Shown here: positions 4,501 through 4,576 of the stretch, in pieces
Layout: each line of letters starts with the position of its first letter
Numbering within the stretch: the first letter of the stretch is position 1
Assembly (NCBI GenBank): GCA_024276825.1
Contig: JAJRWI010000059.1
Coordinates: 1-23,541 of the forward strand
Origin: an archaeon
GTDB taxonomy: Archaea; Asgardarchaeota; Thorarchaeia; Thorarchaeales; Thorarchaeaceae
DNA length: 23,541 bases
Direction: 5' to 3'
Notes under the pieces: model-generated
Told to the model about the DNA's origin: nothing
Database searches by the model: none
What the model saw: only the letters and a program-made list of their open reading frames with translations
Translations under genes and position numbers: made by a program

Positions 4501-4576
4501 GGTTGTTCCGATGATGTAGTTTGGCTTCTTAGGACATATGTCCAATGATGAATCATAGTTAGTCTGAGGAACAATC
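4501..4576 (+). ncRNA. Box C/D methylation-guide sRNA
   Basis: 9-bp terminal stem GGTTGTTCC(4501-4509)/GGAACAATC(4568-4576); C box ATGATGT (4511-4517); D' CTTA (4528-4531); internal palindrome GGACATATGTCC; C' ATGATGA (4545-4551); 12-nt guide; D box CTGA (4564-4567). Lies in an intergenic gap. Confidence 0.8.

Follow-up and report, generated by a model that had tools for sequence, protein, structure and literature searches.

A candidate box C/D sRNA gene of Asgard archaea with a guide matching the helix 69 loop of 23S rRNA

The stretch of DNA analysed here (the window) comprises 23,541 nt of a genome that is assembled to 2.94 Mb in 82 contigs, is 98% complete and holds a single 23S rRNA gene (contig C42:60183-63406, + strand). 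Two genes on the same strand of the window are separated by a gap of 164 nt. The upstream neighbour, an ORF at 4166-4450 (+), encodes ribosomal protein L35Ae (rpl35ae; PF01247, 77.7 bits), and the downstream neighbour, an ORF at 4615-5160 (+), encodes a membrane protein of 181 amino acids. The latter is a multi-pass protein for which a Pfam search returned no family; it is syntenic in 16 of the 16 family loci compared, with 43-51% identity and a position directly downstream of the element described below.

The gap holds an element at 4496-4581 (+) with the layout of a box C/D sRNA. It is closed by a terminal stem, whose 5′ strand spans 4496-4509 (core 4501-4509, GGUUGUUCC) and whose 3′ strand spans 4568-4581 (core 4568-4576, GGAACAAUC). 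The core forms 9 bp, including one G-U pair, and the fold extends over the whole of 4496-4581 with an energy of -30.1 kcal/mol (z = -4.1), a stability reached by none of 200 shuffled sequences. Within the stem follow box C (AUGAUGU, 4511-4517), which ends in U rather than A in this genome, a partly decayed D′ guide of 10 nt (AGTTTGGCTT / AGUUUGGCUU, 4518-4527), a degenerate D′ box (CUUA, 4528-4531), an internal hairpin between D′ and C′ (GGAC-AUAU-GUCC, 4532-4543), a perfect box C′ (AUGAUGA, 4545-4551), a D guide of 12 nt (ATCATAGTTAGT / AUCAUAGUUAGU, 4552-4563) and a canonical box D (CUGA, 4564-4567), all on the + strand; the boxes were read from the sequence and from alignments. A TATA-box-like motif (TTTTATC, 4461-4467, +) lies between rpl35ae and the element and is a candidate promoter. 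The initial annotation had placed a complete C-D′-C′-D architecture with a terminal stem in the gap after rpl35ae, with TCATAGTTA at 4553-4561 in the D guide. The location, the guide sequence, the stem and boxes C, C′ and D are as claimed, but the architecture is not fully complete, because the D′ box CUUA is non-canonical.

No Rfam family reaches its gathering score anywhere in the whole window. Below threshold, 17 Rfam matches fall in the 281-nt region around the element, every one of them to a C/D-box family, and the best scores 19.5 bits against a gathering score of 39. The covariance model supplied by this work matches the window at 4497-4577 with 75.9 bits.

A blastn search of the region against 60 relatives recovered its core, from box C to box D, in many genomes of the family. 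The initial annotation had suggested looking for homologues downstream of rpl35ae, and in 16 of the 16 family loci extracted the homologue is indeed flanked by rpl35ae and by the same membrane-protein gene. The blastn match in one relative (G013) proved not to be a homologue; the true copy of that genome was located elsewhere with the covariance model. Boxes and guide are retained in the relatives, as judged from an alignment of 16 family sequences, a second alignment of 34 sequences and the covariance model. In the 16-sequence alignment, no change is seen in TCATAGTTA, in the GGCT core of the D′ guide or at the C, G and A positions of box D. Boxes C and C′ have an invariant core with U or C at the fifth position, and within box C the last position is the one further place that varies (A, G, U or C).

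The paired elements also change in step. The terminal stem shows compensation among relatives (TTCC/GGAA versus CTCC/GGAG), and the internal hairpin has 93% of its cells paired in the 34 sequences, with compensatory changes in three of its four pairs. Furthermore, the relatives conserve a (T)TTTATC or TATATA motif 22-33 nt ahead of their terminal stem, a spacing as expected for an archaeal promoter, which would be its probable function. The D′ box is CUGA in most relatives, including the two genomes of the same genus, so that CUUA in the present genome appears to be a derived, weakened state, one shared with a subclade whose D′ box reads CCUA or CACA.

In the host 23S rRNA, helix 69 (H69) reads ACUAACUAUGAG / GGGACUAACUAUGAGUCUC. 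Positions 4553-4563 of the D guide form 11 contiguous Watson-Crick pairs with H69 at C42:62222-62232 (target ACUAACUAUGA), leaving unpaired only the guide nucleotide that adjoins box C′. The paired 11-mer occurs exactly twice in the 2.9-Mb genome when both strands are searched, namely in H69 and in the guide. As an empirical null, all 77 genomic instances of TGAYGN-N12-CTGA were scored for their longest rRNA match covering the N+5 position. These instances typically reach 6-7 nt, and a match of 11 nt was found only here and on the strand antisense to the rRNA gene. The D spacer is exactly 12 nt, and the fifth nucleotide upstream of box D, nt 4559, forms an A-U Watson-Crick pair with the second A of UAAC in the H69 loop (C42:62226). 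A strict pattern scan of this genome yields few canonical candidates, and its set of C/D sRNAs is probably small. The 16S and 23S genes are unlinked in this assembly: the only 16S is a fragment at C42:1-846 (-) that covers model positions 4-828 and runs off the contig start, about 59 kb from the 23S gene and on the opposite strand.

The numbering of the paired adenosine can be derived from published alignments by two routes. The first A of the H69 loop corresponds to E. coli A1912, and the archaeal loop aligns to that of E. coli without indels (Dennis et al., 2015; PMC4644070), so the target, the second A, is the equivalent of E. coli A1913. In yeast, Am2256 (snR63) lies in H69, where Psi2258 corresponds to E. 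coli 1915 and Psi2260 to 1917 (PMC2794176); the first of these correspondences gives an offset of 343 and therefore equates E. coli A1913 with yeast A2256. The assignment of Am2256 to snR63 is also given in PMC5699541. The human counterpart, A3739, is guided by SNORD46, and the site is also that of Giardia GlsR7 and of a nucleomorph snoRNA (PMC6461891). The D guide is thus predicted to direct 2′-O-methylation of the H69 adenosine equivalent to A1913. The initial annotation had reached the same nucleotide (yeast Am2256/snR63, the human SNORD46 site) from conserved rRNA and had proposed a pairing of at least 9 bp with the host H69 as the check; the host 23S gives 11 bp, and the N+5 position and the numbering agree on the nucleotide.

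The second guide pairs less well. The D′ guide of the window forms 8 bp (7 Watson-Crick and one G-U) with 23S at AGCCAAAU, 21-22 nt 3′ of the H69 site, and no better target than this H70-71 site was found for it in the 23S, the partial 16S and 28 tRNAs. The 16S scanned was the fragment broken at the contig end, and a further target in 16S is possible. In one relative, G015, the D′ guide forms 10 Watson-Crick pairs at the same site. In most relatives, D′ guides pair with the H70-H71 strand, 21-32 nt beyond the H69 site in the 3′ direction and in a varying register: the D′ N+5 position falls at E. coli 1934/35 in f1 (the window's own family, Thorarchaeota type; yeast C2277/C2278), at 1938 in family f12 (yeast A2281, the snR13 site, Am2281), at 1940 in f5 (Heimdall type, 10 bp; yeast G2283) and at 1945 in families f17, f9 and f18 (yeast G2288, the snR75 site, Gm2288). 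The D′ guide can therefore be said to 'walk' along H70-H71 between lineages (loci L118-L126 and L141-L143; f9, f12, f17 and f18). In f9, a further compensation between guide and target is seen, CUAGA with UCUAG. On these predicted pairings the sRNA family has two guides aimed at a single neighbourhood within domain IV, and such dual targeting is the pattern of many archaeal sRNAs (Dennis et al., 2015; PMC4644070; Lui et al., 2018). In the window itself the D′ guide looks decayed, and its D′ function is uncertain.

The covariance model was run on 151 genomes sampled evenly across the phylum and matched once per genome: in 24 of the 26 genomes of the window's family and in 12 of the 13 genomes of the Heimdall family f5. 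A single copy is likewise present in both genomes of the same genus. Further matches, in which the H69 guide was confirmed by inspection, occur in f2, f4, one genus of f9, f12, f17, f18 and f22. Matches in f16 were false, having no H69 guide, and weak matches in most f9 genera were discarded for the same reason. Among the 151 genomes the sRNA family was not found in many of the sampled Asgard families, for example in most f9 genera.

An exact-pattern scan (TGAYGNNTCATAGTTANNCTGA) over 185,579 species genomes returned 42 DNA stretches, of which 37 lie in Asgard MAGs (36 genomes, one MAG being represented on two contigs) and the remaining five are bacterial, presumably by chance; with this exact pattern, Asgard was the only named archaeal phylum to appear. 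The Asgard matches belong to Heimdallarchaeota, Thorarchaeota and unnamed Asgard or archaeal bins, and those in Heimdallarchaeota include the complete genomes of Heimdallarchaeum endolithica and H. aukensis, as well as AB_125. By sequence identity, the window's family falls among the records named Thorarchaeota. The Heimdall-type sRNA has the same collinear layout but differs in its D′ guide and in its neighbouring genes, and the contexts of the homologues in Heimdallarchaeota and the other families are unrelated to the rpl35ae locus. At the Heimdall-type loci L042-L081, an AATTATA motif is strongly conserved 25-30 nt upstream of box C and there is almost no terminal stem. In one Heimdall subgroup (HM4_B41, CSMAG_2472, bin51 and the 7H bins), the D′ guide is replaced by an unrelated A-rich sequence. 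The predicted sRNA is kept across much of Asgard. No published account of Asgard C/D sRNAs, or of RiboMeth-seq in Asgard, was found in a literature search of limited coverage; as far as that literature goes, the present work supplies the first documented Asgard C/D sRNA family. Moreover, the A1913 equivalent offers a precise site for modification mapping in the few Asgard cultures.

Comparison of each guide with the 23S rRNA of its own genome, which was recovered for eight genomes of seven Asgard families, places the N+5 nucleotide at the A1913 equivalent in all eight, with 8-11 contiguous pairs. Three kinds of matched change between guide and H69 are seen across the seven families. The guide reads TCATAG against a CUAUGA target in f1, f5, f17 and f12, TTATAG against CUAUAA in f18 and TCACAG against CUGUGA in f4. 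At the closing pair, TTAGT faces ACUAA in f1, and TTAC faces GUAA in f17, f12 and f18. This covariation between families is the strongest argument that the predicted sRNA acts through base pairing to H69. Within the window's family, an expected covariation of the two guide nucleotides adjoining box D with the H69 stem was absent: these nucleotides drift without compensation, so that pairing varies between 9 and 11 bp. The lack of covariation at this level can be explained by the target, since H69 is identical in nine of the nine family genomes with a recovered 23S. The pairing in G037, a relative of the same order (family f2), was left unscored, as no H69 could be recognised in its recovered 23S just before the conserved UUAAGGUAGCC. 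In that genome (locus L144, C23 ~102170-102210), GGTTTGGATTTGAACTCCAAACC stands directly upstream of UUAAGGUAGCC, which may reflect an rRNA intron, an insertion at H69 or a misassembly.

The proteins that such an RNA would need are encoded in the same genome. Nop5 (C35:53014-53685) adjoins fibrillarin (C35:53808-54479), and there are two L7Ae-family genes; the profile matches are PF01269 (303.6 bits), PF01798 in the adjoining gene (226.2 bits) and two to PF01248. H69 forms intersubunit bridge B2a, next to the decoding centre. In the proposed mechanism, an independent gene would give rise to an sRNA of ~80 nt, transcribed probably from its own TATA-like promoter at 4461-4467 and closed by the terminal stem of 9-13 bp. 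L7Ae would bind the kink-turn made by boxes C and D, while box C′, the degenerate D′ box and the covarying internal hairpin would make up a second motif of the kink-turn type, and Nop5 and fibrillarin would assemble on both. The 12-nt D guide would then pair with the loop and the 5′ strand of H69 in nascent 23S, and fibrillarin would 2′-O-methylate the adenosine opposite nt 4559, the A1913 equivalent. Since both the 8-bp D′ guide and the D′ box are weakened here, the sRNA of this genome may act mainly via its D guide. What the analysis shows is the architecture, the capacity to pair, the conservation, the covariation of the stems and of guide with target, and the encoded proteins; transcription, RNP assembly and the methylation itself are inferred. 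A search for sequencing runs matching positions 4100-4700 listed three DNA runs with small shares and two related runs with almost none, and no RNA run.

Of the other explanations, the one that survives best, though improbable, accepts the pairing and drops the chemistry: the sRNA would bind H69, and perhaps H70-71, to chaperone folding while the 50S subunit assembles, and would leave the target unmethylated. Such a role has been proposed for archaeal dual guides with closely spaced targets (Dennis et al., 2015; PMC4644070; Lui et al., 2018), conserved guides with mismatches at N+5 have been reported as well (Lui et al., 2018), and the imperfect C′/D′ motif of this genome would fit it. Pairing alone, however, needs no particular register, whereas here the register is fixed in every lineage and N+5 is always the same adenosine. 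Moreover, the A-U pair at N+5 is of the Watson-Crick type, box D is canonical and the spacer measures exactly 12 nt.

Considerably less probable still is a cis-acting role, in which an L7Ae-binding kink-turn in the 3′ UTR of rpl35ae, or in the 5′ UTR of the downstream gene, would regulate those mRNAs. The 164-nt gap lies between genes on the same strand, this context is kept throughout the family, and L7Ae is known to bind kink-turns in mRNAs (PMC5539422). Against this, homologous RNAs stand in unrelated gene contexts in Heimdallarchaeota and other families, the Heimdall-type homologue has an AATTATA of its own upstream, and a TATA-like motif intervenes between rpl35ae and the element in the window; nor would a purely cis role explain why guide and 23S H69 covary. 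Finally, a chance intergenic sequence with box-like motifs and a 9-11 nt rRNA match is effectively refuted. Short box motifs are common (the 77 instances above), and the full guide pattern also turns up by chance in five bacterial genomes. Against chance stand an 11-nt match that the genome has nowhere else, the conservation of the element from family to family, its covariation with the target and the covariation of its stems. The segment at 4496-4581 (+) is therefore read here as very probably a genuine, previously unannotated box C/D sRNA gene.

Several known RNAs can be compared with this predicted methylation guide. The generic archaeal C/D families of Rfam (such as sR11, sR20 and snoPyro_CD) share its order of boxes, its 12-nt D spacer and its size; they differ in that all matches lie below gathering scores, and no described family covers the window RNA. 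Among eukaryotic guides, snR63, SNORD46 and GlsR7 have, according to the literature, the same target nucleotide. The Rfam consensus of GlsR7 and snoR442 (RF01232), UCAUAGUUAcU-CUGA, presents a guide identical in sequence and register to UCAUAGUUAGU-CUGA in the window, and from this identity snoR442 would be expected to share the H69 target. At the level of whole models the likeness is slight: SNORD46 gave no covariance-model match at E <= 10, while GlsR7 scored 12.7 bits (gathering 75) and snoR442 12.4 to 14.9 bits (gathering 50), both below threshold. The GlsR7 match can be aligned only with a gap in the guide spacer, spacers being longer in the eukaryotic RNAs, and the likeness is limited to the boxes and to a guide that the conserved target dictates. 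Eukaryotic C/D snoRNAs use Nop56, Nop58 and Snu13.

The closest precedents are crenarchaeal. H68, H69 and H71 are hotspots of archaeal methylation, with predictions dense around A1912 (Dennis et al., 2015; PMC4644070). In the same study (Additional files 1 and 3), Ignicoccus hospitalis sR91 is assigned to 23S A2179 and G2211 and Sulfolobus acidocaldarius sR113 to 'A21779', evidently a typing error for A2179, and RNA-seq detected the two of them (Dennis et al., 2015; PMC4644070). Counted back from column 2200 of the published alignment, A2179 corresponds to E. coli A1913 and G2211 to G1945. The D guides of the two RNAs, ...CAGAGTTAC...-CUGA, share the register of the window guide and address the second A in the loop of H69, and the target pair of sR91 (A1913 and G1945) is identical to that of the Asgard families f17, f9 and f18. 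Aligned collinearly, sR91 and the f17 RNA agree at 55 of 68 positions, and sR91 and the window RNA at 45 of 65, a likeness of which much is forced by the shared boxes and the shared target. The window RNA differs from the crenarchaeal guides in that it matches the Asgard H69 sequence CUAUGA and not CUCUGA, has a longer terminal stem and carries a hairpin between D′ and C′; its D′ guide is degenerate and pairs over 8 bp at E. coli 1934/35, unlike the second guide of sR91, which is directed to G2211 in H71.

These precedents bear on the origin of the site. The initial annotation had suggested that an Asgard guide for this position would point to an archaeal origin, or to convergence, of a eukaryotic snoRNA target. 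An old, pan-archaeal site is indeed indicated, but the position is not an Asgard-specific link to eukaryotes, because sR91 and sR113, crenarchaeal guides detected by RNA-seq, precede it. Individual methylation sites are generally unconserved between archaeal lineages (Lui et al., 2018); this guide and site pair is found in Crenarchaeota (published), in much of Asgard and in eukaryotes (yeast, human, Giardia and a cryptophyte nucleomorph), which makes the methylated adenosine at the tip of H69 a strong candidate for inheritance from the archaeal ancestor of eukaryotes. A bolder reading, which we consider rather unlikely, is that the dual H69/H70-71 guide is one orthologous gene older than the divergence between Asgard and TACK archaea, passed through the first eukaryotes as the direct ancestor of SNORD46/snR63, and had its second guide (the A2281 and G2288 sites) taken over later by separate snoRNAs. 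If true, an individual snoRNA gene could for the first time be followed by descent from archaea to LECA. Most simply, the Asgard sRNA predicted here would be an orthologue or a functional equivalent of crenarchaeal sR91 and sR113.
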